NCBI RefSeq assembly: GCF_056746865.1
Contig: NZ_CM163382.1
DNA: 64,000 bases
Strand: one strand, 5' to 3'
The translations under genes and the position numbers were made by a program. The notes below the pieces were generated by a model. It saw only the letters and a program-made list of their open reading frames with translations. It was not told the origin of the DNA and searched no databases. Below are positions 30,079 through 53,483 of the stretch, piece after piece (positions within the stretch are counted from its first letter, which is position 1; every line of letters begins with the position of its first letter).

Positions 30079-30771
30079 ATGATGACTAAAATAAAGTTAT
30101 TGATGCTCATTATATTTTATTTAATCATTTCGGCCAGCGCTCATGCTGCCGGAGGGATCGCATTAGGTGCCACGCGTATTATTTATCCCGCTGATGCTAA
30201 ACAGACTGCGGTATGGATTAGAAATAGCCATACCAATGAGCGCTTTCTGGTCAATTCATGGATTGAAAACAGCAGCGGTGTAAAAGAAAAGTCATTCATC
30301 ATTACACCGCCACTGTTTGTTAGTGAACCCAAAAGCGAAAATACTTTGCGTATTATTTACACCGGTCCACCGCTGGCGGCAGATCGTGAGTCTCTGTTCT
30401 GGATGAATGTTAAGACGATCCCTTCGGTAGATAAAAATGCATTGAACGGCAGGAATGTTTTGCAACTGGCGATTTTATCGCGCATGAAATTATTTCTCCG
30501 TCCAATTCAATTACAAGAATTACCCGCAGAAGCGCCGTACACACTCAAGTTTTCGCGATCCGGTAACTATATCAATGTTCATAATCCATCACCTTTTTAT
30601 GTCACCCTGGTTAACTTGCAAGTGGGCAGCCAAAAACTGGGGAATGCTATGGCTGCACCCAGAGTTAATTCACAAATTCCCTTACCCTCAGGAGTGCAGG
30701 GAAAGCTGAAATTTCAGACCGTTAATGATTATGGTTCAGTAACCCCGGTCAGAGAAGTGAACTTAAACTAA
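30079..30771 (+). CDS. sfmC: Periplasmic fimbrial chaperone (PapD-like)
   Basis: 230 aa; signal peptide; chaperone fold. Confidence 0.88.
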
Positions 30772-30801
30772 CCGAATCATCTGACAATATCAGAGCTAAT
30801 T

Positions 30802-33411
30802 ATGAAAATACCCACTACTACGGATATTCCGCAGAGGTATACCTGGTGTCTGGCCGGAATTTGTTATTCATCTCTTGCCATTTTACCCTCCTTTTTAAGC
30901 TATGCGGAAAGTTATTTCAACCCGGCATTTTTATTAGAGAATGGCACATCCGTTGCTGATTTATCGCGCTTTGAGAGAGGTAATCATCAACCTGCGGGCG
31001 TGTATCGGGTGGATCTCTGGCGTAATGATGAGTTCATTGGTTCACAGGATATCGTATTTGAATCGACGACAGTAAATACAGGTGATAAATCAGGTGGGTT
31101 AATGCCTTGTTTTAATCAGGCACTCCTTGAACGAATTGGCCTTAATAGCAGTGCATTCCCCGAGTTAGCCCAGCAGCAAAATAATAAATGCATTAATTTA
31201 CTGAAAGCTGTACCTGATGCCACAATTAACTTTGATTTTGCAGCGATGCGCCTGAACATCACTATTCCTCAGATAGCGTTGTTGAGTAGCGCTCACGGTT
31301 ACATTCCGCCTGAAGAGTGGGATGAAGGTATTCCTGCTTTACTCCTGAATTATAATTTCACCGGTAACAGAGGTAATGGTAACGATAGCTATTTTTTTAG
31401 TGAGCTCAGCGGGATTAATATTGGCCCGTGGCGTTTACGCAACAATGGTTCCTGGAACTATTTTCGCGGAAATGGATATCATTCAGAACAGTGGAATAAT
31501 ATTGGCACCTGGGTACAGCGCGCCATTATTCCGCTGAAAAGTGAACTGGTAATGGGAGACGGCAATACAGGAAGTGATATTTTCGATGGCGTTGGATTTC
31601 GTGGTGTACGGCTTTATTCTTCCGATAATATGTATCCTGATAGCCAGCAAGGGTTTGCCCCAACGGTACGTGGGATTGCCCGTACGGCGGCCCAGCTAAC
31701 GATTCGGCAAAATGGTTTTATTATCTATCAAAGCTATGTTTCCCCCGGCGCTTTTGAAATTACAGATTTGCACCCGACATCTTCAAATGGCGATCTGGAT
31801 GTCACCATCGACGAGCGCGATGGCAATCAGCAGAATTATACAATTCCGTATTCAACAGTGCCGATTTTACAACGCGAAGGGCGTTTCAAATTTGACCTGA
31901 CGGCGGGCGATTTTCGTAGCGGTAATAGTCAGCAATCATCGCCTTTCTTTTTTCAGGGTACGGCACTCGGCGGTTTACCACAGGAATTTACTGCCTACGG
32001 CGGGACGCAATTATCTGCAAATTACACCGCCTTTTTGTTAGGGTTGGGGCGCAACCTCGGGAACTGGGGCGCAGTGTCGCTGGATGTAACGCATGCGCGC
32101 AGTCAGTTAGCCGACGACAGTCGTCATGAGGGGGATTCCATTCGCTTCCTCTATGCGAAATCAATGAACACTTTCGGCACCAATTTTCAGTTAATGGGTT
32201 ACCGCTATTCGACACAAGGTTTTTATACCCTTGATGATGTTGCGTATCGTCGAATGGAGGGGTACGAATATGATTACGATTATGACGGTGAGCATCGCGA
32301 TGAACCGATAATCGTGAATTACCACAATTTACGCTTTAGCCGTAAAGACCGTTTGCAGTTAAATATTTCACAATCACTTAATGACTTTGGCTCGCTTTAT
32401 ATTTCTGGTACCCATCAAAAATACTGGAATACTTCGGATTCAGATACGTGGTATCAGGTGGGGTATACCAGCAGCTGGGTTGGCATCAGTTATTCGCTCT
32501 CATTTTCGTGGAATGAATCTGTAGGGATTCCCGATAACGAACGTATTGTCGGACTTAATGTTTCAGTGCCTTTCAATGTTTTGACCAAACGTCGCTACAC
32601 CCGGGAAAATGCGCTCGACCGCGCTTATGCCTCCTTTAACGCCAACCGTAACAGCAACGGGCAAAATAGCTGGCTGGCAGGTGTAGGTGGGACCTTACTG
32701 GAAGGCCACAACCTGAGTTATCACGTAAGCCAGGGCGATACCTCGAATAATGGGTATACGGGTAGCGCTACGGCAAACTGGCAGGCCACTTACGGTACGC
32801 TGGGGGTCGGGTATAACTACGACCGCGATCAACATGACGTTAACTGGCAGCTGTCTGGCGGTGTGGTCGGGCATGAAAATGGTATAACGCTGAGCCAGCC
32901 TTTAGGGGATACCAATGTTTTGATTAAAGCGCCTGGCGCAGGCGGTGTACGCATTGAAAATCAAACTGGCATTTTAACCGACTGGCGCGGCTATGCGGTG
33001 ATGCCGTATGCCACGGTTTATCGGTATAACCGTATCGCGCTTGATACCAATACGATGGGGAATTCCATCGATGTTGAAAAAAATATTAGCAGCGTTGTGC
33101 CGACGCAAGGCGCGTTGGTTCGTGCCAATTTTGATACCCGCATAGGCGTGCGGGCGCTCATTACCGTTACCCAGGGCGGAAAACCGGTGCCGTTTGGATC
33201 ACTGGTACGGGAAAACAGTACCGGAATAACCAGTATGGTGGGTGATGACGGGCAAGTTTATTTAAGCGGTGCGCCATTGTCTGGTGAATTACTGGTTCAG
33301 TGGGGAGACGGTGCAAACTCACGCTGCATTGCGCACTATGTATTGCCGAAGCAAAGCTTACAGCAAGCCGTCACTGTTATTTCGGCAGTTTGCACACATC
33401 CTGGCTCATAA
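30802..33411 (+). CDS. sfmD: Outer-membrane fimbrial usher
   Basis: 869 aa usher. Confidence 0.9.
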
Positions 33412-35834: not shown

Positions 35835-35911
35835 GCGCCCTTAGCTCAGTTGGATAGAGCAACGACCTTCTAAGTCGTGGGCCGCAGGTTCGAATCCTGC
35901 AGGGCGCGCCA
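35835..35911 (+). tRNA. argU: tRNA-Arg (anticodon TCT, reads AGA/AGG)
   Basis: 77-nt cloverleaf GCGCCCTTAGCTCAGTTGGATAGAGC...TCTAA...GGTTCGAATCCTGCAGGGCGCGCCA. Confidence 0.95.
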
Positions 35912-35926
35912 TTACAATTCAATCAG

Positions 35927-37090
35927 TTACGCCTTCTTTATATCCTCCATAATTCCAGAGTGGGACATATTTGGGACATTATCACCAAAAATGTCGTCTA
36001 TTTTCCTCGCATGCTCTGTCAAATGATTAGGCGCAAGGTGAGCATACCTACGAACCATTTCTATGGACTCCCATCCGCCCATTTCCTGAAGCACTGATAA
36101 TGGGACGCCTGACTGAATCAGCCAGCTTGCCCAGGTGTGTCTGAGGTCATGGAAACGGAAATCTTCAATTCCTGCACGACGACAAGCTGATAGCCATGAT
36201 GTCTTGCTGTCGATGCGCATCTTCCTGACCGCAGGCGTTGATGTTCCATCTGCTCGCTTAGCCGCCTTGGTATGTACAAACACCCATTTGTGATGCTTGC
36301 CTATTTGATCACGCAACACTTTACAGGCGGTATCGTTCAGCGCCACACCAATGGCGCGGTTTGATTTGCTCTCTTCTGGATTCACCCAGGCAACTCGTCG
36401 CTGCATGTCGATTTGTTGCCATTCCAGATTTATGATGTTCGACTTTCTCAGACCAGTTGCCAGCGCAAACTTGACGACAGATTTCAGTGGTTCGGGGCAC
36501 TCATCAATAAGGCGTTTTGCTTCCTCCTTTTCCAGCCATCTGACTCGCTTGTTTCTGACCGCTGGTATCTTGATGACAGGCGCTTTTTCCAGCCACTTCC
36601 AGTCGCGTTCTGCAGCACGGAGAATGGCCTTTATCATGGCAAGATGCTTTGCCTTTGTCTGAGTTGATACTGGCTTTGGTTCATAAACAGGCAGTTCTTT
36701 ACCTTTCCTGATGGCGGCCTGAACTTTCTGTTTCCATATTTCTTTCGTCTTTCTGTTATGCATTCTGCTTACAGCAGAGTAAATCTTTGCCTCCGAGATA
36801 TCTTTAAGCCTTATACCCTCAAAATGTTCAAGCCAGAACTCAATCCGGCTTTTATCTGAATCGAGAGATTTTTTATCAGCTTTTTCCTCAAGCCATCTTA
36901 GGCAGGCCTCTTCAAAAGTGACATCAGGTAAATCCCCTAGCTTTTCTACTCGCCAGAGTTCTGCTTTTCGCTTGTCGTGCAACTCCTGAGCTTGCCGCTT
37001 GTCCTTTGTGCCAAGAGATTCCTTAATTCGTTTCCCGCCCGGGAGCGAATACGAGGCATACCATATTTCATTTCTGCGGAAGAGTGACAT
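35927..37090 (-). CDS. intD: Tyrosine integrase (DLP12 IntD type)
   Basis: 387 aa; C-terminal catalytic R..HxxR..Y region; adjacent to tRNA. Confidence 0.9.
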
Positions 37091-37614: not shown

Positions 37615-37833
37615 TCATAGTCCCCATTGTTTGTTCTTAAGTTCGATCTCCTCCTGGCAACTTGCACAAGTCCGACAACCCTGAACAGCCAGGCGTCTTC
37701 GCTCATCTATCGGATCGCCACACTCACAACAATGAGTTGCGGATACAGTCTGGTAGTTCAGACGACGCATTTTTATTGCTGTATTGCGCTGTAATTCTTC
37801 GATTTCTGATGCTGAATCAATGATGTCTGCCAT
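37615..37833 (-). CDS. TraR/DksA-family C4 zinc-finger protein
   Basis: 72 aa; CxxC-x17-CxxC (CCECGDPIDERRRLAVQGCRTCASC). Confidence 0.7.
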   Translation of the reverse strand: MADIIDSASEIEELQRNTAIKMRRLNYQTVSATHCCECGDPIDERRRLAVQGCRTCASCQEEIELKNKQWGL

Positions 37834-37925
37834 CTTCCATTAATCCCTGAATTGTTGGTTAATACGCTTGAGGATGAATGCGAACAATAAAAAAGGAGCC
37901 TGTAGCTCCCTGATGATTTTGCTTT

Positions 37926-38243
37926 TCATGTTAACCGTTCCTTAAAGACGCCGTTTAACATGCCGATCGCCAGGCTTAAATGAGTCGGTGTGAATCCCAT
38001 CAGCGTTACCGTTTCACGGTGCTTCTTCAGTACGCTACGGCAAATGTCATCGACGTTTTTATCCGGAAACTGCTGTCTGGCTTTTTTGATTTCAGAATTA
38101 GCCTGACGGGCAATGCTGCGAAGGGCGTTTTCCTGCTGAGGTGTCATTGAACAAGTCCCATGTCGGCAAGCATAAGCACACAGAATATGAAGCCCGCTGC
38201 CAGAAAAATGCATTCCGTGGCTGTCATACCGGGTCTCTCTCAT
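37926..38243 (-). CDS. Hypothetical phage protein
   Basis: 105-aa ORF (possibly starting internally at MTPQQENAL). Confidence 0.35.
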   Translation of the reverse strand: MRETRYDSHGMHFSGSGLHILCAYACRHGTCSMTPQQENALRSIARQANSEIKKARQQFPDKNVDDICRSVLKKHRETVTLMGFTPTHLSLAIGMLNGVFKERLT

Positions 38244-38415
38244 CTGCTTCTGCTTTCGCCACCATCATTTCCAGCTTTTGTGAAAGGGATGCGGCTAACG
38301 TATGAAATTCTTCGTCTGTTTCTACTGGTATTGGCACAAACCTGACTCCAATTTGAGCAAGGCTATGTGCCATCTCAATACTCGTTCTTAACTCAACAGG
38401 AGATGCTTTGTGCAT
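38224..38415 (-). CDS. Hypothetical small phage protein
   Basis: 63-aa ORF upstream of exo in same orientation. Confidence 0.35.
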   Translation of the reverse strand: MHKASPVELRTSIEMAHSLAQIGVRFVPIPVETDEEFHTLAASLSQKLEMMVAKAEADERDPV

Positions 38416-38566
38416 ACCGCCTCCCGTTTATTATTTATCTTCTCAGCCAGCCGCTGTGCTTTCAGGGGATTTCTGATAACAGAAAGGCCGGGAAATACCC
38501 AGCCTCGCTTTGTAATGGAGTAGACGAAAGTGATCGCGCCTACCCGGATATTATCGTGAGGATGCG

Positions 38567-39247
38567 TCATCGCCATTGCTCCCCAAATACAAAACCAATT
38601 TCAGCCAGTGCCTCGTCCATTTTTTCGATGAACTCCGGCACCATCTCGTCAAAACTCGCCATGTAATTTTCATCCCGCTCAACCACGACATAATGCAGGC
38701 CTTCACGCTTCATTCGTGGGTCATAGTTGGCAAAGTACCAGGCATCTTTTCGCGTCACCCACATGCTGTACTGCACCTGGGCCATGTAAGCCGACTTTAT
38801 GGCCTCGAAACCACCGAGCCGGAATTTCATGAAATCCCGGGAGGTAAACGGGCATTTCAGTTCAAGGCCGTTGCCGTCACTGCATAAACCATCGGGAGAG
38901 CAGGCGGTGCGCATACTTTCGTCGCGATAGATGATCGGGGATTCAGTAACATTCACGCCGGAAGTAAACTCAAACAGGGCTCTGGCGTCGTTCTCGTACT
39001 GTTTTCCCCAGGCCAGCGCCTTAGCATTAACTTCCGGAGCCACACCGGTGCAAACCTCAGCCAGCAGGGTGTGGAAGTAGGACATTTTCATGTCAGGCCA
39101 CTTCTTTCCTGAGCGGGGCTTTGCTATCACGTTGTGAACTTCTGAAGCGGTGATGACGCCGAGCCGTAATTTGTGCCATGCATCATCCCCCTGTTCGACA
39201 GCTCTCACGTCGATCCCGGTACGCTGCAGGATAATGTCCGGTGTCAT
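38567..39247 (-). CDS. exo: Lambda-type 5'-3' exonuclease (Red alpha)
   Basis: 226 aa, near-identical to lambda Exo as I recall it ([40 protein letters not shown]...). Confidence 0.95.
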
Positions 39248-40029
39248 GCTGCCACCTTCTGCTCAGTGGCTTTCTGTTTCAGGAATCCAAGAGCTTTCAC
39301 TGCTTCGGCCTGTGTCAGTTCTGACGATGCGCGAATGTCGCGGCGAAATATCTGGGAACAGAGCGGCAATAAGTCGTCATCCCATGTTTTATCCAGGGCG
39401 ATCAGCAGAGTGTTAATCTCCTGCATGGTTTCATCGTTAACCGGAGTGATGTCGCGTTCCGGCTGACGTTCTGCAGTGTATGCGGTATTTTCGACAATGC
39501 GCTCGGCTTCATCCTTGTCATAGATACCAGCAAATCCGAAGGCCAGACGGGCACACTGAATCATGGCTTTATGACGTAACATCCGTTTGGGATGCGACTG
39601 CCACGGTCCGGTGATTTCTCTGCCTTCGCGGGTTTTGAATGGTTCGCGGCGGCATTCATCCATCCACTCGGTAACGCAGATCGGATGATTGCGGTCCTTG
39701 CGGTAAATCCGGCATGTGCAGGATTCATTGTCCTGCTCAAAGTCCATACCATCAAACTGCTGGTTTTCATTGATGATGCGGGACCAGCCATCAACGCCCA
39801 CCACCGGAACGATGCCATTCTGCTTATCAGGAAAGGCGTAAATTTCTTTCGTCCATGGATTAAGGCCGTACTGGTTGGCAACGATCAGTAATGCGATGAA
39901 CTGCGCATCGCTGGCATCACCTTTAAATGCCGTCTGGCGAAGAGTGGTGATCAGTTCCTGTGGGTCGACAGAATCCATGCCGACACGTTCAGCCAGCTTC
40001 CCTGCCAGCGTTGCGAGTGCTGTACTCAT
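39244..40029 (-). CDS. bet: Lambda-type single-strand annealing protein (Red beta)
   Basis: 261 aa, near-identical to lambda Bet ([59 protein letters not shown]...). Confidence 0.95.
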
Positions 40030-40034
40030 CCGTT

Positions 40035-40331
40035 TTATACCTCTGAATCAATATCAACCTGGTGGTGAGCAATGGTTTCAACCATGTACCGGATGTGTTC
40101 TGCCATGCGCTCCTGAAACTCAACATCGTCATCAAACGCACGGGTAATGGCTTTTTTGCTGGCCCCGTGGCGTTGCAAATGATCGATGCATAGCGATTCA
40201 AACAGGTGCTGGGGCAGGCCTTTTTCCATGTCGTCTGCCAGTTCTGCCTCTTTCTCTTCACGGGCGATCTGCTGGTAGTGACGCGCCCAGCTCTGAGCCT
40301 CAAGACGATCCTGAATGTAATAAGCGTTCAT
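40035..40331 (-). CDS. gam: Lambda-type Gam (RecBCD inhibitor), 98-aa form
   Basis: [60 protein letters not shown]... matches lambda GamS. Confidence 0.93.
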
Positions 40332-40406
40332 GGCTGAACTCCTGAAAATGGCTGTGAAAAAATCGCCCGCGGAATGCCAGGCTGATTCGGAAAACAGGAA
40401 AGGGGA

Positions 40407-40697
40407 TTAGTGATTCAGACCGTTGCCGCGTCCGTCGAGAAAAACTTCCACGAGCAAGTCACGGGTATAAGTGCGCTCAATGCCGCGATGCAGATAAAGT
40501 CGTCCGCGTAAATTAGCTGATGCAGTCCAGGTACCATCTTTGCGTTTGACCAGCATTCCTGGCATGACCGCACCGCGATTAACGGTCTGCGTTCCGTAAT
40601 GTTGATGAACCATAAAAACTCCTGCCCGTAAGCTGGGCTGCTGAACATATAAAGACTTCTGCGCGTATTCAGGCGGTGGATGGCCGCCGGTTGTCAT
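40407..40697 (-). CDS. Hypothetical protein, first ORF downstream of the putative pL
   Basis: 96-aa ORF with GAGG RBS; no recognisable N/kil/cIII motif. Confidence 0.4.
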   Translation of the reverse strand: MTTGGHPPPEYAQKSLYVQQPSLRAGVFMVHQHYGTQTVNRGAVMPGMLVKRKDGTWTASANLRGRLYLHRGIERTYTRDLLVEVFLDGRGNGLNH

Positions 40698-40879
40698 AAC
40701 TAAGCCGCCTCGTTGAAGCGACTAAGGTATGAAATGTTGAGTTGATTTCAGCTGGTCACACCGACGTTCACGCGTCCGTTTCATCCCTCGCACTCCCCGA
40801 AGCCTGCTGAAATTCAAGCTGCGGATCTAAGCGGTCATCGCAACGGTGAATCAGGTAGTTGCCGTATCGTTGTGTTGTT

Positions 40880-40970
40880 GCGATGAACTTATTTAAAACT
40901 ATAGTTGTTTTATCGTCAACAACAAAAGTTGTTTTATTGGTTGTTTTAGATATAACTGGTTGTATTTAGG
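40880..40970. promoter_or_regulatory. Putative OL/pL operator-promoter region
   Basis: Repeated TGGTTGT/ACAACAA half-sites (caacaacaaaagttgtt, ttattggttgtttt, taactggttgtat) shared with the cI-cro intergenic region. Confidence 0.55.
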
Positions 40971-41095: not shown

Positions 41096-42028
41096 CTATT
41101 CGATTTTTTTAACCATGTAGTTACGTCGTGATGTTCCTAATCTTTCATTGTGAATCTCAGAAACGCTTACTACGAGCGATATTCGTTCACCAACTTTATA
41201 TTTACTTTGAATTTCTCCTAACATATCAATCGGATAAGAAGCCTTTATTTTTCCAAGCTCGCTTGCAATCTCCAATTTCCCGTACATGGATAAAATAGCA
41301 AGTTCGCCTGATATATGCTCATCCGGTAGCTGAATGACCTTCGTTAAAGCTAAGCGAGCATTCAGTTTTTTTATATCTTCTGAAGAAATTGACACTTGTC
41401 TGGTACCATCACTTAAAGGTCCAATCCAAGTAAGATCAAAGTTAAGACTATATTTTTCGCACTCATTTATGATGTTTTTTAGGTTAGCTGTTGATTGCGA
41501 ACCAATTTCGGCAATTTTAGCCGTGAATGTTTCTTCATCAATGGATGAGAGTAGTGCAAAAATCTCCTTAACAGCATGACTGGATACTGTTTCGATGAGC
41601 TCGCAAGAACCAGTAGAAAAAGTAACACCTAACTTCGTCGAACCTGGACGCAAGTCTGCCAATCTCATGTCTAATGATTTTTTAACATCAATCGGCACAC
41701 GACTAGAATCTTTCCCAGATCCAAGTCGGTAAACTGCTTTCTGTACAAGGGATGCGAGATTACCTGAAATTACAGATAGAATATCTAACGGAATAGACCC
41801 GAAATCGACCAAAACACCTTTTAATCTCAACTCCATGAAATCACGTAAAGGATGTTGGTTATCGATTGCACGTTGTCTCTCTCGGAGATCGCTCAGATGG
41901 GAGTCAAGTGATCTAAATATAATGTCATCAGCAAATGATCTCCCCTTATTTTGAGCAAGCAGATCCACATCGCGTTGAATGAACGCAATTCGCTCCTTGA
42001 GGGAGTTGAATGTTTTTTCTTCGCTCAT
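41096..42028 (-). CDS. Hypothetical protein, distal gene of the rexAB-position operon
   Basis: 310 aa; AT-rich; start overlaps stop of upstream 157-aa gene (ATGA); no recognisable family. Confidence 0.6.
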   Translation of the reverse strand: MSEEKTFNSLKERIAFIQRDVDLLAQNKGRSFADDIIFRSLDSHLSDLRERQRAIDNQHPLRDFMELRLKGVLVDFGSIPLDILSVISGNLASLVQKAVYRLGSGKDSSRVPIDVKKSLDMRLADLRPGSTKLGVTFSTGSCELIETVSSHAVKEIFALLSSIDEETFTAKIAEIGSQSTANLKNIINECEKYSLNFDLTWIGPLSDGTRQVSISSEDIKKLNARLALTKVIQLPDEHISGELAILSMYGKLEIASELGKIKASYPIDMLGEIQSKYKVGERISLVVSVSEIHNERLGTSRRNYMVKKIE

Positions 42029-42498
42029 AACATTACCCTCACGAGGCCTTTAGGATTCTCCTTCCGATCAAAACCAAACCACCCTCTCCAGTAACTTCGC
42101 CTTTCACTATAATCGATTTCTGGATGATTTTCAGGCAGCAAAAGAACGTCAATGCTGTAGTTTTCTTTAATAAAATCTCTATTTAACAATGAGCTGACCA
42201 ATGGCATCAGCGTGTTTGGCAAAGAGTTTAGGGCCAAATAATCGACGACCACGAGTATATCTATGTCATCAGGTTCAGGTTTCTCTGTAGTGAATGAACC
42301 ATCGATCCACACTTCAGAGAAACATAGACACTGCTGATTAACAAGTTTAAATTGCTCAATAAGCTGTATAAAATTACAGTATAGCATACTTCTTCTAACG
42401 GATTTTGGGAAGGTGTCGACACAAAGAGACTTGATGCCATCACTATCCATATCATGAAATCCTGCTGTAAGAAGAGGTGGGAAGCTAGGCTTTTCCAT
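42025..42498 (-). CDS. Putative minimal nucleotidyltransferase-fold protein, proximal gene of the rexAB-position operon
   Basis: 157 aa; GS-x9-DxD motif (WIDGSFTTEKPEPDDIDILVVVD) typical of the Pol-beta NTase superfamily; AT-rich. Confidence 0.55.
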   Translation of the reverse strand: MEKPSFPPLLTAGFHDMDSDGIKSLCVDTFPKSVRRSMLYCNFIQLIEQFKLVNQQCLCFSEVWIDGSFTTEKPEPDDIDILVVVDYLALNSLPNTLMPLVSSLLNRDFIKENYSIDVLLLPENHPEIDYSERRSYWRGWFGFDRKENPKGLVRVML

Positions 42499-42579: not shown

Positions 42580-43269
42580 TTAACCATGCTTCCTGTACGT
42601 CTGCGGCATGCTCCCAATAACCTTACCGAAGATGAACACCCGGTTCATCTCGTCTTTCTCGATCGGGTCCCACGGTGAGTAGCTTTTGTTATCAGAGATG
42701 ACCAGCAGCTTATCCTTCATCATTTGCAGGCGCTTTACATGGGCTGTGTCGTCGTACAGAAACGCATAGATACCATCACCGTCGAAAGATTTAACTGTGA
42801 TATCAACGAACAGCAGATCACCTGGTTCGATCGTTCCTGACATGCTGTCACCACGCACGTTAATGATGCGGATATTTTCCGCCTTCCTACCATCGAACAT
42901 GTGACGAGCATCGTCAAACGAGTACTCAACCGAGCGTAGAACTTCTACAAACTCACGGTTGATGACTCCCGGCCCAGCACTGACTTCTATATCAAGAACG
43001 TCAATCTTGAAGTATTTGGAATGGCTGACAGTTGATTGTATTGGTTGCACTGTACTGTCTGACATATTTCCAACGCCAGAAGATAACCATTCTGCGCGCA
43101 CACCCAAAGCGTTCGCGATCTCCACGATTTTAGTTGTTTGATTAGCTTTCCCTGTTTCGATTTTCTGAATAGCAGCCTGGCTAACCCCGACCAAATCCCC
43201 AAGCGCCTTTTGTGTAAGGCCTCGCGCTAATCTGGCTTCTTTAAGTCTTTCTGAGAGTGTTGTTTTCAT
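42580..43269 (-). CDS. cI: CI-like prophage repressor (HTH plus S24 LexA-like autopeptidase)
   Basis: 229 aa from MKTTLSERLKEARLARGLTQKALGDLVGVSQAAIQKIE; C-terminal S24 region (GDSMSGT ... K); divergent from cro. Confidence 0.85.
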   Translation of the reverse strand: MKTTLSERLKEARLARGLTQKALGDLVGVSQAAIQKIETGKANQTTKIVEIANALGVRAEWLSSGVGNMSDSTVQPIQSTVSHSKYFKIDVLDIEVSAGPGVINREFVEVLRSVEYSFDDARHMFDGRKAENIRIINVRGDSMSGTIEPGDLLFVDITVKSFDGDGIYAFLYDDTAHVKRLQMMKDKLLVISDNKSYSPWDPIEKDEMNRVFIFGKVIGSMPQTYRKHG

Positions 43270-43274
43270 AGTCC

Positions 43275-43373
43275 AAATGTACAACCAAGGTTTTATTCCA
43301 TCAAACGAAAATGGTTGTTGACTAAAAACAACCATAGTTTTAATCTTGATTCAAATTAACCACGGAGGTTGTT
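43275..43373. promoter_or_regulatory. Putative OR/pR/pRM operator region
   Basis: Inverted repeat ATGGTTGT-n9-ACAACCAT (43311-43335) plus further ACAACCA/GGTTGTT half-sites between divergent cI and cro. Confidence 0.6.
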
Positions 43374-43604
43374 ATGAACCCAGCTATCAAAACAGCGATC
43401 AATATCGTTGGTTCACAAAAGAAACTGGGCGCTGCTTGCGAAGTTTCACAGCAGGCCGTCTATAAGTGGCTTCACAACAAAGCAAAGGTATCCCCTGAAC
43501 ATGTCGGCAGCATTGTTACGGCTACTGGTGGAGTAGTGAAGGCATACCAGATTCGCCCGGATCTTCCGAAGTTGTTTCCACACACCGAAAAGAACGCAGC
43601 TTAA
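43374..43604 (+). CDS. Cro-like HTH regulator (YdaS-like)
   Basis: 76 aa; HTH KKLGAACEVSQQAVYKWL; first gene rightward of the operators. Confidence 0.7.
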   Translation: MNPAIKTAINIVGSQKKLGAACEVSQQAVYKWLHNKAKVSPEHVGSIVTATGGVVKAYQIRPDLPKLFPHTEKNAA

Positions 43605-43673
43605 ATTTCCATTTCACGCTCTTTAACAATAAGCAATCAACTTAACAGTCAATTCAAACTAAAGGAGTCAATT

Positions 43674-44213
43674 ATGCAACCACTTCCATACCAACAGACT
43701 AGCGGATTTAGCCCGACTGCGGTGATAAATCGTTCTCAAACAAAACAGGTGCCAGGCCACGAAAAAATCCGTGATGCCGTCCGCGCCTGGTCGGCTGTAG
43801 ATAATCAGGATGTCGTTGCCACACTCATTGTGAATGAGTATCGGGAGCAGGGCGGCGGCACCATCGATTTCCCTGATGATGTCAGCCGTGCACGCCAGAA
43901 GCTGTTCCGCTTCCTCGATAACAAATTCGATTCTGAAAAATACCGAAATAACGTGCGTGAACTGACCCCGGCAATTCTGGCGGTACTACCGCTGGAATAT
44001 CGCGGTTACCTGGTTGAGCAGGATAGCTTCATGGCTAGGTTGGCTGAAATGGAAAAGGAACTCAGTGAGGCAAAACAGGCTGTCATTCTCAACGCACCAC
44101 GCCACCAGAAACTGAAGGAAATTAGTGAAGGTATTGTATCGATGTTTCGTGTGGACCCAGATCTGGCTGGTCCATTGATGGCGATGGTTACTACCATGCT
44201 GGGGGCGATATGA
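43674..44213 (+). CDS. CII-position regulatory protein (YdaT/CII-like family suspected)
   Basis: 179 aa; position between cro and O; family assignment from memory, not verified. Confidence 0.45.
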   Translation: MQPLPYQQTSGFSPTAVINRSQTKQVPGHEKIRDAVRAWSAVDNQDVVATLIVNEYREQGGGTIDFPDDVSRARQKLFRFLDNKFDSEKYRNNVRELTPAILAVLPLEYRGYLVEQDSFMARLAEMEKELSEAKQAVILNAPRHQKLKEISEGIVSMFRVDPDLAGPLMAMVTTMLGAI

Positions 44214-46474: not shown

Positions 46475-47977
46475 TTAAATTGCATCTGCAAACTCTGGGG
46501 TTTTTCGCTCAGGTATAATTGATGAGTTGCTGTTGTCACTTTTTTTATTTTCATGATTACGAATAGCCAATGACTCATTAAAGTCTTTTGCGACTGCTGT
46601 CTCAATAAATTCAATTTCTGAATCAGAGTGTTTTTTAACAGCTTCTTTGATCTCATCCAGAGTAACATAGAAAAACTCTTTTCTACGATTTACAAGATTG
46701 ACTCTCTTTTTATCGAAGACATCATGTAGTTTTTTTTCTAATGATGGAGCGTCCTCCGAATAAATCATGGCATGTACATCAAAAATAAAAGGAACAGATG
46801 CATCACCGAGCTCATTTACACGGTCTTGCGGATCAAGACGTCGTGTCATGCCTATTTTATAAACATTCTCCCCAAAAGAACCTATGTTCGAAATAATATA
46901 AACATGACCTTGTTTGGTTTGTTGTGCCATGGATAATGCTCTTTGATGCTTTGATTCAGCCTGCGACAAACTCTGTTCTAGTTCGGCAATGCGATTTTCG
47001 AGGCGCTGCTTCATGTCACCAGTAACTTTTTCCATTTCCTTTCTTGCAGCTTCAATTGCTTTTTTATAACGGCGCTCTTCTGCCTCTGCGTCTTGCATGG
47101 CCTTTTCTATTTCTCGTTGTGCACGCTCCTCCTCTCTCATTTGTGCCCTTATTTCTGCCTGTTCTTCTTTTTCTTTCTGTTTTTGCTCACGATATTCATG
47201 GGTAAGCCACAATTCCTCAAGTTTTTTATTGAGGTATTTAGTGTTTATATATATGTGATTTTGCTCGTTTAGTTTATTTATGGCCTCAAATGCCTTTGTG
47301 ATGCGTTCTTCCATTTTAGTGATGTTTTTCCACGTGCAATTGCTAATTGCAGCATCACATTCATTATTAAATGCTCTAGTAGTTAGCCTGATATTTCTGT
47401 CTGTCATTTTTTTACCCTCTGCTCGAGAGCCTTCAACAGTCCATTGGGTTGTACAATATACTGCGCCAGAGTGGGTTTTATCCCGCAGCATTAATTTCTG
47501 TTCATCCCTGATGGATTTTATTTTGTTTTTAAATTGCTCTGAATCTTCAAAATTAAAATGAGGTTCGTAAAATCCTAGTTCGGCTAGCTCAACATCTTCT
47601 GAATAAATAGAAATTTGCCTTACTAGTTTATCATATATTTCTTTCTTCTCTTTATAAGTTCTTCTTAGCTCTTGGATTTGTTTATTGATACCATCCATTT
47701 TTTCAATGGTGTTTGTTAGTTCATTATTGGCATTTTCTTTTACTTTTAGGGATTCTTCTTTTATTATGGAGCATTCTTGCTCTGTTTTCTCAATAAGCTT
47801 CTTACATTCTTCTTCTACATTAAAATAATCTGCAAAGCGAGATTTGTATTCTTCATTTTTTTGATTGCTATCACTTAATTCTAATTGTATTTTTTTGATG
47901 CGTTTGATTGCAGCTATATAAAGAACAAGAACAACCAATAAAAATATGATTGCAAGTAATAGAGGAGTTTGAGTCAT
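46475..47977 (-). CDS. Membrane-anchored coiled-coil protein with C-terminal T5orf172/GIY-YIG-like domain (DUF4041-like middle region)
   Basis: 500 aa; N-terminal TM helix (LLLAIIFLLVVLVLYIAAI); long E/K/R-rich coiled coils; C-terminal GHVYIISNIGSFGENVYKIGMTRRLDPQDRVNELGDASVPFIFDVHAMIY; antisense to flanking phage genes; strongly AT-rich. Confidence 0.7.
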   Translation of the reverse strand: MTQTPLLLAIIFLLVVLVLYIAAIKRIKKIQLELSDSNQKNEEYKSRFADYFNVEEECKKLIEKTEQECSIIKEESLKVKENANNELTNTIEKMDGINKQIQELRRTYKEKKEIYDKLVRQISIYSEDVELAELGFYEPHFNFEDSEQFKNKIKSIRDEQKLMLRDKTHSGAVYCTTQWTVEGSRAEGKKMTDRNIRLTTRAFNNECDAAISNCTWKNITKMEERITKAFEAINKLNEQNHIYINTKYLNKKLEELWLTHEYREQKQKEKEEQAEIRAQMREEERAQREIEKAMQDAEAEERRYKKAIEAARKEMEKVTGDMKQRLENRIAELEQSLSQAESKHQRALSMAQQTKQGHVYIISNIGSFGENVYKIGMTRRLDPQDRVNELGDASVPFIFDVHAMIYSEDAPSLEKKLHDVFDKKRVNLVNRRKEFFYVTLDEIKEAVKKHSDSEIEFIETAVAKDFNESLAIRNHENKKSDNSNSSIIPERKTPEFADAI

Positions 47978-48467: not shown

Positions 48468-48789
48468 TTGTAACTGTTGTAGCAGCTATGGATGTGATCA
48501 TCATGGTGTCCATTTACTGGGGTTGACGACATGATTTATCCGGCGCTATATTCTGTGCGTTGCCGCAAAATCGGCACACGGGATTGGCGTCCCGGGATAC
48601 TACTCAACGCATACCGCGTTAAGCGGTTTTTTTGTGCGCTAAGCACGGCTATGCCCAAATTATGGTGGGCTGTGTGAGGGCTTCTTCGGAAGCGCCGGGT
48701 TTGAGTAGCCGGTTACGCCAACCTTACACAGTTCACCACCAGTCGATTGGCGTCGTTGGTGGTGATGGTTAACCTGATGAGGTGATACT

Positions 48790-49398
48790 ATGACTACTCA
48801 ATTAGCATTCCACAAAACGACGTTTACCCCGATTTGCCACAATAACAGAATTTGGCTTACTGCCACTGAAGTTGGTTTAGCACTGGAATATGCGGACGAT
48901 AAAGCAGTTCAGCGCATTTACTCTCGGCACTCAGATGAATTCACAGATATGATGACAAGGGTGGTCAAAGTGACCACCCCTCGTGGAATGCAGGAGTCTC
49001 GAGTATTTAGCCTTCGCGGAGCCCATTTGATCGCCATGTTTGCTCGTACTCCTGTGGCCAAAGAATTCCGCCGCTGGGTTCTGGATATTCTCGATCGAGA
49101 AGTTCAACAATCCCCAATCACAAAACAATTCACTGATAACGAACTTTGCACACTCGCCTGGTTATGGCGAGCAAGTGATACGATGTTAACCGCCTGCCAG
49201 AACGTTACGCCCCTTCTTCAGGTCGCAGAGCATCGCGAAGCAGGTAGATTCACTTCAATCGAACAAGAATATCCTCGGATACTCAACAGGGCGCGAGAAA
49301 TCCTTGCCAGAGAAACGGCGCATGTAAAATTCCAACCGTGGCAGGATGATAAGTGGAGTCGTGTGTTACCATATTTCCGTCAGAATCTGTTGCAATAA
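48790..49398 (+). CDS. Bro-N/antirepressor-like protein
   Basis: 202 aa; N-terminal Bro-N-like region (LAFHKTTFTPICHNNRIWLTATEVGLALEY...SRVFSLRGAHLIAMFARTPVAKEFRRWVLDIL). Confidence 0.6.
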   Translation: MTTQLAFHKTTFTPICHNNRIWLTATEVGLALEYADDKAVQRIYSRHSDEFTDMMTRVVKVTTPRGMQESRVFSLRGAHLIAMFARTPVAKEFRRWVLDILDREVQQSPITKQFTDNELCTLAWLWRASDTMLTACQNVTPLLQVAEHREAGRFTSIEQEYPRILNRAREILARETAHVKFQPWQDDKWSRVLPYFRQNLLQ

Positions 49399-51742: not shown

Positions 51743-51827
51743 AGTCAGAGATAACAATCAACTAATACTGTTTTGTTGATTTTTGCTTGTAATTGGCGTT
51801 CTGGTCTGAGTTTTGTGGAGTAAGTTG

Positions 51828-52211
51828 ATGCGTGATATTCAGATGGTTCTTGAGCGTTGGGGAGCGTGGGCGGCTAATAATCATGAAGATGTGACCTGGT
51901 CGTCCATTGCCGCCGGTTTTAAGGGATTAATTCCTTCAAAAGTAAAATCTCGCCCGCAATGTTGTGACGATGACGCGATGATCATTTGCGGGTGCATGGC
52001 CCGTCTGAAAAAGAACAACAGCGATTTGCACGATTTATTAGTAGATTATTATGTAGTCGGTATGACATTCATGTCACTGGCAGGTAAGCATTGCTGCTCT
52101 GATGGTTATATCGGGAAAAGGTTACAAAAGGCTGAGGGCATAATTGAAGGGATGTTAATGGCATTAGATATCCGGTTAGAGATGGATATCGTTGTTAATA
52201 ACTCTAATTAA
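51828..52211 (+). CDS. quuD: Late-gene antiterminator Q (QuuD type)
   Basis: Cys-rich ([12 protein letters not shown] ... CC); last gene before the late-promoter region; start could be 51813. Confidence 0.7.
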
Positions 52212-52400: not shown

Positions 52401-53483
52401 TTAGAACTGGTAAACCAGACCTACAGCAACGATGTCATCAGTATCAATACCAGCTGTTTTGGTAAACTTACTATCGTCAATTAAGTTGATTTTGTAATCA
52501 ACAAAAGTGGACATGTTTTTATTAAAGTAGTAAGTAGCACCGACATCGACATACTTGACTAAGTCTCGGTCACCATGAACACCAAGGTCTTTACCTTTTG
52601 ACTGAAGGTAAGCAACAGATGGGCGCAGACCGAAGTCAAACTGATATTGTGCTACTGCTTCAAAGTTTTGTGCTTTGTTTGCAATATGGTTATTACCAAA
52701 AACGGTCATATTCTGAGTTTCAGAATATGTGGTAGCCAGATAGATATTGTTCGCATCATATTTCAGGCCTGCAGCCCATACTTCCGCATTTTTGCCGGAG
52801 GCATTGAATTTGCTCTTACCATAGGCGACCTGACCGTCAGTGCGATCTGATTTAGCATAGGTTGCACCCACGCCGAATCCTTCATACTCATAAGTAGTGG
52901 AGAAACCGAAACCATCACCATTGGCTTCAGTTACGTCAGTGCGGTCATTTTTACCCTGATACTGAGCAGCAAAGTTCAGGCCATCGACCAGACCAAAGAA
53001 GTCGTTGTTACGATAAGTTGCAACACCAGTAGTGCGACCAGTCATGAACACATCTGTTTGGGTCCAGGTATCACCACCGAATTCTGGCAGGACGTCAGTC
53101 CACGCACCGATGTCGTATGCTACACCGTAGTTACGGCCGTAATCGATTGAGCCGTAATCACCAAATTTCAGGCCTGCAAATGCAAGACGGGTTTTGTCTT
53201 TGGAAGAACCTTGAGATTCAGCGCGGTTGCCTTTGAATTCATATTCCCACTGACCGAAACCAGTCAGTTGATCGTTGATTTGGGTTTCACCTTTGAAGCC
53301 AAGACGGGCATAAGTAGTATCACCATCATCTGCATCATTAGAGGAGAAGTAGTGCTTAGCATTAACTTTCCCGTACAGATCCAGCTTGTTACTGTCTTTA
53401 TTATAAATTTCAGCTGCCTGAGCAGACATCGCCATCAGTACTGATGCAGCTACAGCAGAAATTGCCACTGTTAATTTTTTCAT
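52401..53483 (-). CDS. nmpC: General porin (OmpC/OmpF/NmpC family), uninterrupted
   Basis: 360 aa; signal peptide [23 protein letters not shown]; C-terminal ...GLVYQF. Confidence 0.88.

Follow-up and report, generated by a model that had tools for sequence, protein, structure and literature searches.

How early leftward transcription reaches xis and int in a lambdoid prophage without a recognizable N gene is the question raised by the 64,000-nucleotide (nt) stretch of DNA analyzed here (contig NZ_CM163382.1 of NCBI RefSeq assembly GCF_056746865.1), which we refer to as the window. In lambda, read-through of the terminators of the pL operon (tL2/tL3) depends on N. The corresponding operon of the window comprises kil, gam, bet, exo, orf60a, orf63, orf61, a traR-like gene, xis, and int, and between its promoter pL and kil lies an untranslated leader of approximately 270 nt that consists of a 5' and a 3' part. 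We found a conserved RNA module of approximately 95 nt in this leader, beginning about 48 nt past the inferred pL start (Table 1). By analogy with the put RNAs of other phages, we tentatively favor the view that the module is a cis-acting antiterminator RNA that works like put without being a member of the put family.

The absence of N proposed by a sequence-only reading of this locus was borne out by family searches: no early open reading frame (ORF) matched an N family in Pfam, PHROGs, or NCBIfam. We took as a lambda-type N a first gene after pL whose product of approximately 100 to 130 amino acids (aa) begins with an arginine-rich motif at its N terminus and matches an N-family profile; the only arginine-rich ORF is 20 to 31 aa long and is not conserved. 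A lambda-type nut site was defined as boxA (CGCTCTTA or GCTCTTTAACAA) and a boxB hairpin within about 10 nt, present in both early operons. In 40600-40900, neither boxA (12-mer with up to two mismatches, or lambda 8-mer with up to one mismatch) nor boxB was found, and the sole exact boxA (43618-43629) stands after cro without an adjacent stable hairpin. A canonical N homolog together with nutL was likewise sought in the interval leftward of pL and was not seen. In lambda, N and nutL occupy the same place as the module, as the first element of the pL transcript, whereas the left side of the window contains no N gene, boxA, or boxB, and its arginine-rich ORF is not conserved. The covariance models of Rfam 15 gave no match in 40600-40900 at E values up to 1, and an Rfam scan of 35-52 kb at the same limit returned only a tRNA and C4/isrK-type RNAs, all outside the leader. 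Given that several carriers of the module are phages that were isolated free, such N-less genomes are viable.

The putative pL of the sequence-only reading proved sound. Its hexamers, spacing, and operator half-sites are the same as those of pR/OR (43311-43350, with pR at 43320-43350), as is the operator palindrome, and in an alignment of eight related phages the operator block varied with immunity type and the flanking DNA was constant. The transcript would start near the A at 40884, and leader positions n are numbered such that n falls on window coordinate 40886 - n. In the window, the covariance model built for the module detected one copy only, at 123.7 bits. The 161 nt at 40735-40895 are present at an identity of at least 95% in 2209 of 5426 complete E. 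coli genomes, with one unannotated copy per prophage. The same 161 nt also occur in 16 deposited phages, several of them isolated as free phage, and first searches with the 5' part of the leader gave no match outside this group of Escherichia phages. The module lies directly 3' of pL in three immunity types with differing operators, and its carriers include O157:H7 and the LF82-type prophage Perceval. A variant, type B, which a pattern scan of IMG/VR brought to light, is 82% identical to the type A form over 95 nt (E 3e-18, search against the phage collection) and is present at 17 loci, including a Trabulsiella guamensis prophage. Further IMG/VR scans for divergent variants yielded no new types, and a GTDB scan detected the module only in E. 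coli, in Trabulsiella, and in one probably mis-binned contig of a metagenome-assembled genome. Nothing was detected by the module covariance model in lambda, HK022, HK639, phi80, HK225, KO-TP1, or CobraSix. Local alignment of the 5' module with the leaders of phi80, KO-TP1, HK639, HK225, and HK022 did not rise above shuffled sequences except over the first ~20 nt at the transcript start, and a likeness of one module hairpin, H3, to the 'nutL core' hairpin of phi80 was dropped for this reason. The module is undescribed in the literature that we searched; King et al. 2011 may contain an earlier mention.

Comparison of the two types points to a conserved fold of two hairpins, H2 and H3. The 8-nt loop of H2 (AAUUUCAG) is invariant, position 86 is a variable bulge, and 98.7% of the cells in the H2 alignment are paired. 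From type A to type B, the A66-U85 pair of H2 becomes C-G and the G67-C84 pair becomes A-U, with both sides changed in each case, and one C-G pair becomes U-G. In H3, the A111-U122 pair becomes G-C by compensatory change and one G-C pair becomes G-U; the loop sequence differs by type, and the conserved G-G mismatch is replaced by G-C in three variants. The other differences between types are located mainly in the H3 loop and a bulge, and by our count ~12 of the ~17 core differences affect paired positions, loops, or the bulge. For P1, H2, and H3 together, 93% of cells were paired, compared with 29 to 48% when the partners were slid, three pairs were doubly changed, and none of 500 shuffles of the 35 distinct sequences reached the observed score. 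The secondary structure has thus been kept by compensatory substitutions, as in a structured RNA. The two hairpins are joined by a conserved, single-stranded, purine-rich linker of ~18 nt (GGGGAGUGCGAGGGGUG). Seven bases in the tail (leader 135-141) are complementary to the H2 loop (73-79) and may form a pseudoknot with it; both sides are nearly invariant. A long helix of 73-83 with 131-141 in place of H2 was considered and rejected, as it had no compensatory support and clashed with the supported H2 stem, and it was retained only as the possible 7-bp pseudoknot. The predicted 5' hairpin H1 lies outside the conserved core: its region is occupied by unrelated sequence in the O157:H7-type prophage and by the phi80/HK639-type 5' leader in type B.

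The genomic position of type B provides a lead to function. Type B is located in a pL leader of the phi80/HK639 type, at the place where the HK639 record annotates a 'putL-like antiterminator RNA'. When HK639 and CobraSix, which carry put, were aligned with the Trabulsiella prophage and the IMG/VR prophage L187, which carry the module, the left flanks were identical as far as GAAGTGGAG, and the right flanks (CTAAA.G.TTTACCAGCAGCTCTTTGCGAGGGG...) agreed fully until the first gene begins; the exchange was limited to the put core of ~75 nt and the module of ~100 nt. Among 120 IMG/VR loci sampled for the shared 5' leader GCTGAGCGAAGTTAGCCAGCGGCG, this slot was occupied by a boxA/nut-type cassette (as annotated in phi80) in 74, a put-type cassette in 37, the module in three, and hybrids in four, with two loci too short to classify. 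The first gene after the module differs among type A, Trabulsiella, and HK639-like contexts.

The put elements of HK022 and HK639 (putL/putR) are cis-acting antiterminator RNAs that bind the zinc-binding domain of the RNA polymerase beta' subunit (PMC9378689). Like put, the module stands just 3' of pL in a lambdoid phage without N, consists of two stem-loops with bulges in less than 100 nt, and takes the slot of the put core in HK639-like leaders with identical flanks. In location it agrees with put, being placed early in the pL transcript of an N-less lambdoid phage with terminator-like sites downstream. The HK639 record annotates only a putL-like RNA, and the module is likewise confined to the left side. 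The put consensus of sequence and structure, namely two stems, the signature GAACGGCGCG...GCGUCGG, and stem II GGCGGGUUCAGGAUGAACGGCAAU, is absent from the module, however, and the hairpins of put are separated by a single G, whereas those of the module are separated by the conserved linker. A put RNA is further defined by suppression of termination in cis without a protein, which mutations of the zinc-binding domain in rpoC block. The module is therefore no relative of put, yet the two take each other's place in phage genomes. A recent paper offers 'put-like' simply as a guess for a different lambdoid phage that lacks N (PMC12315714).

If the module functions as we propose, the polymerase leaving pL (start near 40884) would first copy the ~95-nt module (40837-40741), which would fold into H2 and H3 joined by the purine-rich linker, possibly with the loop-tail pseudoknot. 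Like put in HK022 and HK639, the nascent RNA would then act in cis on its own polymerase and render that enzyme resistant to pausing and termination. Such a polymerase would reach kil, gam, bet, and exo and would pass the lambda-derived terminator-like hairpins toward xis and int. That the module mediates antitermination, that it requires no dedicated protein, and that its target is the polymerase are all points that we infer. Three terminator-like hairpins in DNA shared with lambda (Table 1) all precede xis and int, and that at 37911-37893 is the strongest. Lambda records carry no annotated tL terminators to which 37911-37893 could be matched by name. The Trabulsiella prophage, too, has a hairpin resembling an intrinsic terminator, located after the first small gene 3' of the module. 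We prefer the cis-acting RNA because it accounts for the absence of N, the position of the module, its conserved fold, the lack of conservation of the overlapping peptide, and the exact exchange with put.

Several observations weigh against this interpretation. The window lacks both the intrinsic terminator of the 'tL1 cluster' and the U-tracts found in related leaders, so that deletion, and not read-through, may have disposed of some of the barrier that antitermination would otherwise face. No second, right-operon copy of the module was found in the window by the module covariance model. With a put covariance model derived from eight sequences, ten independent put elements scored 80 to 100 bits, whereas the best match in the window reached 9.9 bits (E 0.69, at an unrelated site) and none fell in the leader; nothing matched in any module-bearing locus, so that the analogy with put is one of position and context only. 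The compensatory changes probably represent one or two evolutionary events, type A versus type B, and the covariation support is for this reason real but thin. The folding energy of the module was no better than that of shuffled sequences (z of +0.1 to +1.0), a measure that does not discriminate, given that true put RNAs also scored near zero (z of -0.7 and +0.7). Nucleotide diversity (pi) in the leader was 0.03-0.04, about half of that at third codon positions and in the kil-gam spacer (0.055-0.085); this reduction speaks for a constrained leader, but the constraint is moderate rather than extreme.

The search for ORFs of less than 60 aa that the sequence-only reading had recommended yielded one, an arginine-rich frame at 40722-40817 on the minus strand that overlaps the module and encodes 31 aa from a TTG or 20 aa from the ATG at 40784, the latter product reading MKRTRERRCDQLKSTQHFIP. 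Its N-terminal RxRERR resembles the arginine-rich motif of lambda N, and we treated this likeness as a lead: the mini-ORF (MKRTRERRCDQLK...) might specify a minimal counterpart of N, a peptide able to bind an RNA hairpin and to promote antitermination. A plausible Shine-Dalgarno sequence, GGGGAG, lies 8 nt upstream of the start; some 90% of distinct variants begin with GUG (55 of 61 and 76 of 83), and diversity within type A is higher at third codon positions (0.094) than at positions 1 and 2 (0.024-0.027). This excess, however, concerns four of seven sites and is not significant (p about 0.17 by our own binomial estimate). The type A stop is polymorphic, with TAG and CAG in 21 and 40 of 61 variants and in 29 and 54 of 83 variants, respectively, and the read-through into kil that CAG permits shows no codon-position signal (diversities of 0.025, 0.026, and 0.024); one phage is frameshifted just 5' of kil. 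In type B the frame is reduced to GUG-UAA or to four codons, and the RNA pairs are kept by compensation, so the option of a short N-like ORF fails this comparison. No longer protein with this arginine-rich motif was found among 5.8 billion proteins or 50,697 phage records, the only matches being to the same phage group and to deletion variants. Moreover, 20 aa would be too few for the separate NusA- and polymerase-binding regions of N. We judge the mini-ORF to be a by-product of the CG-rich hairpin H3, the comparison of types indicating that the RNA fold is conserved and the overlapping peptide is not, and we consider an N-like peptide very improbable.

Two other explanations dispense with a self-sufficient antiterminator RNA. 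The module might be a nut-like recruitment site that needs a trans-acting protein, either the host Nus set or an unrecognized phage protein. The commonest cassette in the shared slot is of the boxA/nut type, that of phi80-type nutL, the linker could bind a protein, and the right operon of the window has an exact rrn-type boxA flanked by two motifs of the left leader. The module itself has no boxA, however, the module persists in phages of the second immunity type, which lack the right boxA and its motifs, and the pL operon contains only lambda-type genes of other known families; given that the first gene after the module varies with context, no linked protein partner is apparent. On this balance we regard a nut-like site as unlikely. 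It is also doubtful, in our estimation, that the leader exerts no processive antitermination and serves instead as an ordinary regulatory 5' untranslated region that sets the stability of the mRNA or the translation of kil, or as a Rho-dependent attenuator that translating ribosomes on short upstream ORFs relieve, with the early-left terminators lost and the distal genes expressed from their own promoters. Kil is toxic and plausibly requires tight control, the window is missing the tL1-cluster terminator hairpin and its U-tracts, and leader constraint is only moderate. The GGGGAG precedes a GUG or AUG by 8 nt in both types, even where the frame is start-stop GUG-UAA, and the first 40 nt are C-rich, G-poor, and rut-like. 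Such a role would leave unexplained the precise exchange with the put core in HK639-like leaders, where other genes and intrinsic terminators follow; phage D2, in which lambda kil stands in place of this kil, still has the leader; and the lambda-derived terminator-like hairpins persist between pL and xis/int. Of the mechanisms that the sequence-only reading had left open (a short N-like ORF, a put-like RNA, or a novel factor), the RNA-based one is thus the best supported, with the correction that this RNA is not homologous to put; its starting point, that no canonical N or nutL is present and that the mechanism is not that of lambda, was retained.

The element just after cro deserves separate description. 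It carries GCTCTTTAACAA, the rrn boxA consensus, and both of its flanking motifs also flank the module core in the left leader; sharing of at least 14 of 15 positions was obtained in 2 of 2000 shuffles, and sharing of both motifs together in none of 2000. Antitermination by boxA in rrn operons involves NusB/E, NusA, NusG, SuhB, and S4 (PMC6614797, PMC4807359). The likeness to the rrn system is confined to the right operon of this immunity type and does not extend to the left leader. Phages of the second immunity type with the same left leader have a hairpin (GCCGCCTAAACTGCGGCG) in place of the right boxA element. The presence of boxA without an N gene or a boxB-like hairpin suggests either N-independent, Nus-factor (rrn-like) antitermination or a relic.

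The 3' part of the leader contains a segment shared with phi80, HK639, HK225, KO-TP1, and CobraSix that carries the box GCGCAGAAGUCUU. In those phages the segment comes just 3' of the gene or genes that open the pL operon, and an intrinsic terminator (hairpin and U-tract) stands immediately before CATACC; HK639 and CobraSix also have a U-tract after hairpin hpB. A short ORF start, AUGACAACCGGCGGCCAUCCACCGCC (MTTGGHPPP..., 40672-40697, minus strand), is kept in six phage lineages with differing continuations of 20 to 28 aa (homologous sites in L009, L010, L134, L135, and L136). It overlaps hpB, which is annotated as a terminator in HK639; it may encode a leader peptide rich in proline, or its conservation may reflect nothing more than the hairpin.

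This segment also bears on the first gene of the operon. The sequence-only reading had described the first ORF leftward of OL as a 96-aa protein that resembled no kil. The frame is open as described (40407-40697, minus strand) and encodes the sequence quoted, but it is an over-extended call of a 68-aa Kil. Residues 29 to 96 match the NCBIfam family NF008465, 'FtsZ inhibitor protein' (E 9e-16), and PHROG 294, 'Kil' (E 1e-37), and the 68-aa part is 39% identical to phi80 Kil (BLASTP, E 6e-15). Compared with KilR of the Rac prophage and phi80 Kil, the product scores 57.6 bits in NCBIfam, below the curated cut-off of 92, and it is therefore a family relative rather than an equivalog. A GGAG Shine-Dalgarno sequence precedes the ATG at 40613, and PGAP annotates the same 207-nt kil in E. 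coli genomes. These matches identify Kil as the product of the first protein gene after pL. The 28 N-terminal residues of the 96-aa ORF (MTTGGHPPP...) correspond to a stretch of leader that is either untranslated or translated separately, and a TAG breaks the extended frame in about a third of variants. Deposited phages call a 'Kil' of 96 or 139 aa by extending the ORF into the leader (L001 4108-4527, L002 4108-4398, and L003 3906-4196). The 139-aa 'Kil' of Perceval was considered as a fusion of an arginine-rich motif with Kil and rejected: its linker has no codon-position signal, the stop is polymorphic (TAG/CAG), and PhiR30_1 is frameshifted.

Table 1. Coordinates of the features discussed, in window numbering
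Feature	Position	Strand	Remarks
tRNA gene	35835-35908		adjoins the lambdoid prophage
int	35927-37090	-
Strong intrinsic-terminator-like site	37893..37911	-	8-bp stem, U6; 5' of traR-like gene, xis, and int; DNA 97% lambda
Terminator-like hairpin	38506-38484		lambda DNA
exo, bet, gam	38567-40331	-
Terminator-like hairpin and U-run between kil and gam	40365..40382	-	lambda-shared DNA
kil	40407..40613	-	68 aa; KilR/phi80 Kil family, FtsZ inhibitor by annotation
Leader segment common to five phages	40632..40734	-	remnant of 'tL1 cluster'
Hairpin hpB	40672-40688	-	GGCGG-CCAUCCA-CCGCC
Hairpin hpA	40703-40723	-	sequence differs between phages, stem kept
Conserved RNA module	40741..40837	-	leader 49-145; candidate cis-acting antiterminator RNA
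Tail segment, GCUGAAAU-type	40745..40751	-	leader 135-141; complementary to H2 loop
Hairpin H3	40761..40778	-	leader 108-113/120-125; conserved G-G mismatch, variable loop
Hairpin H2	40797..40824	-	leader 62-64/87-89 and 66-71/80-85
Hairpin H1 (AUCGCAAC ... GUUGCGAU)	40837..40884	-	predicted; at pL transcript start
OL/pL	40891..40960	-	-35 TTGACG 40919-40914, 17-nt spacer, -10 TTAAAT 40896-40891
Operator palindrome	40933-40918	-	AACAAC-TTTT-GTTGTT
cI-like repressor	42580-43335	-
YdaS-like cro	43374-43604
nutR-position element	43595..43647	+	just after cro
Flanking motif CGCAGCTTAAATTTC	43595-43609	+	shared with left leader
rrn-type boxA CGCTCTTTAACAA	43617-43629	+	only exact 12-mer boxA in the window
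Flanking motif AATCAACTTAACA	43635-43647	+	shared with left leader
YdaT-like cII	43674-44213
O and P	from 44210
Q	51813-52211

The Red genes of the prophage are lambda-like, as the sequence-only reading had noted, with 37638-40413 of the window being 97% identical to lambda 30418-33193. Between cI and OL, in the position of rexAB, two low-GC cargo genes (41096-42498, minus strand) encode a 157-aa DUF6932 protein and a 310-aa protein of PHROG 6603, with a terminator behind them at 41088-41069; the cargo found here in relatives is different, such as a HipA-like toxin pair or a SIR2-family protein, and the slot looks like a variable defense or moron site. In the nin region, 48546-48743 and 48790-49398 (both plus strand) contain a C4 antisense RNA, its a1/b1 target, and an isrK-type RNA directly 5' of an antirepressor-like gene (Bro-N / P22_AR_C), which together make up a c4-ant immunity module in the style of P1/P7. 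Within the pR operon but on the other strand, a gene of 500 aa (46475-47977, minus strand; DUF4041 with a T5orf172/MUG113 GIY-YIG-like domain, PHROG 1847), which early rightward transcription must traverse in antisense, is probably another moron or defense gene. Q and the lysis region are separated by a porin gene (52401-53483, minus strand; Porin_1, 360 aa), upstream of which are ybcO and rusA, an arrangement that resembles the right arm of DLP12.

The protein annotated as N in phi80 (98 aa; L010 2686-2982) follows a conserved long leader (...CAAAGCATTTCTCCCGCATCAGCGGGTAAC.ACAGAG) and has no obvious arginine-rich N-terminus. The same slot holds unrelated small proteins in KO-TP1 (L136 2284-2481) and in L155 (after about 11780), and the assignment of the phi80 protein as N may deserve re-examination.

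With regard to annotation, the 96- to 139-aa 'Kil' calls of several deposited phage genomes are over-extended, and a widespread 270-nt leader has been left blank or mis-called as protein. To our knowledge, RNA-only processive antitermination in phages is represented by one family, put, which has for decades served as the model for the reprogramming of RNA polymerase by nascent RNA. The module may constitute a third, previously undescribed class of phage early-antitermination device, in which RNA alone, unrelated to put in sequence and fold, renders E. coli RNA polymerase resistant to terminators, and whose prophage hosts are found in roughly 40% of the complete genomes of E. coli; we regard this wider claim as possible and put it forward with greater reserve. 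The module is short and lies directly behind its promoter, and natural variants supply compensatory mutants, so that a test would be inexpensive. If the proposal is correct, a second, unrelated RNA that does the job of put would offer an independent solution for structural comparison, and it would explain how very common lambda-like prophages of E. coli express their recombination and excision genes without N.

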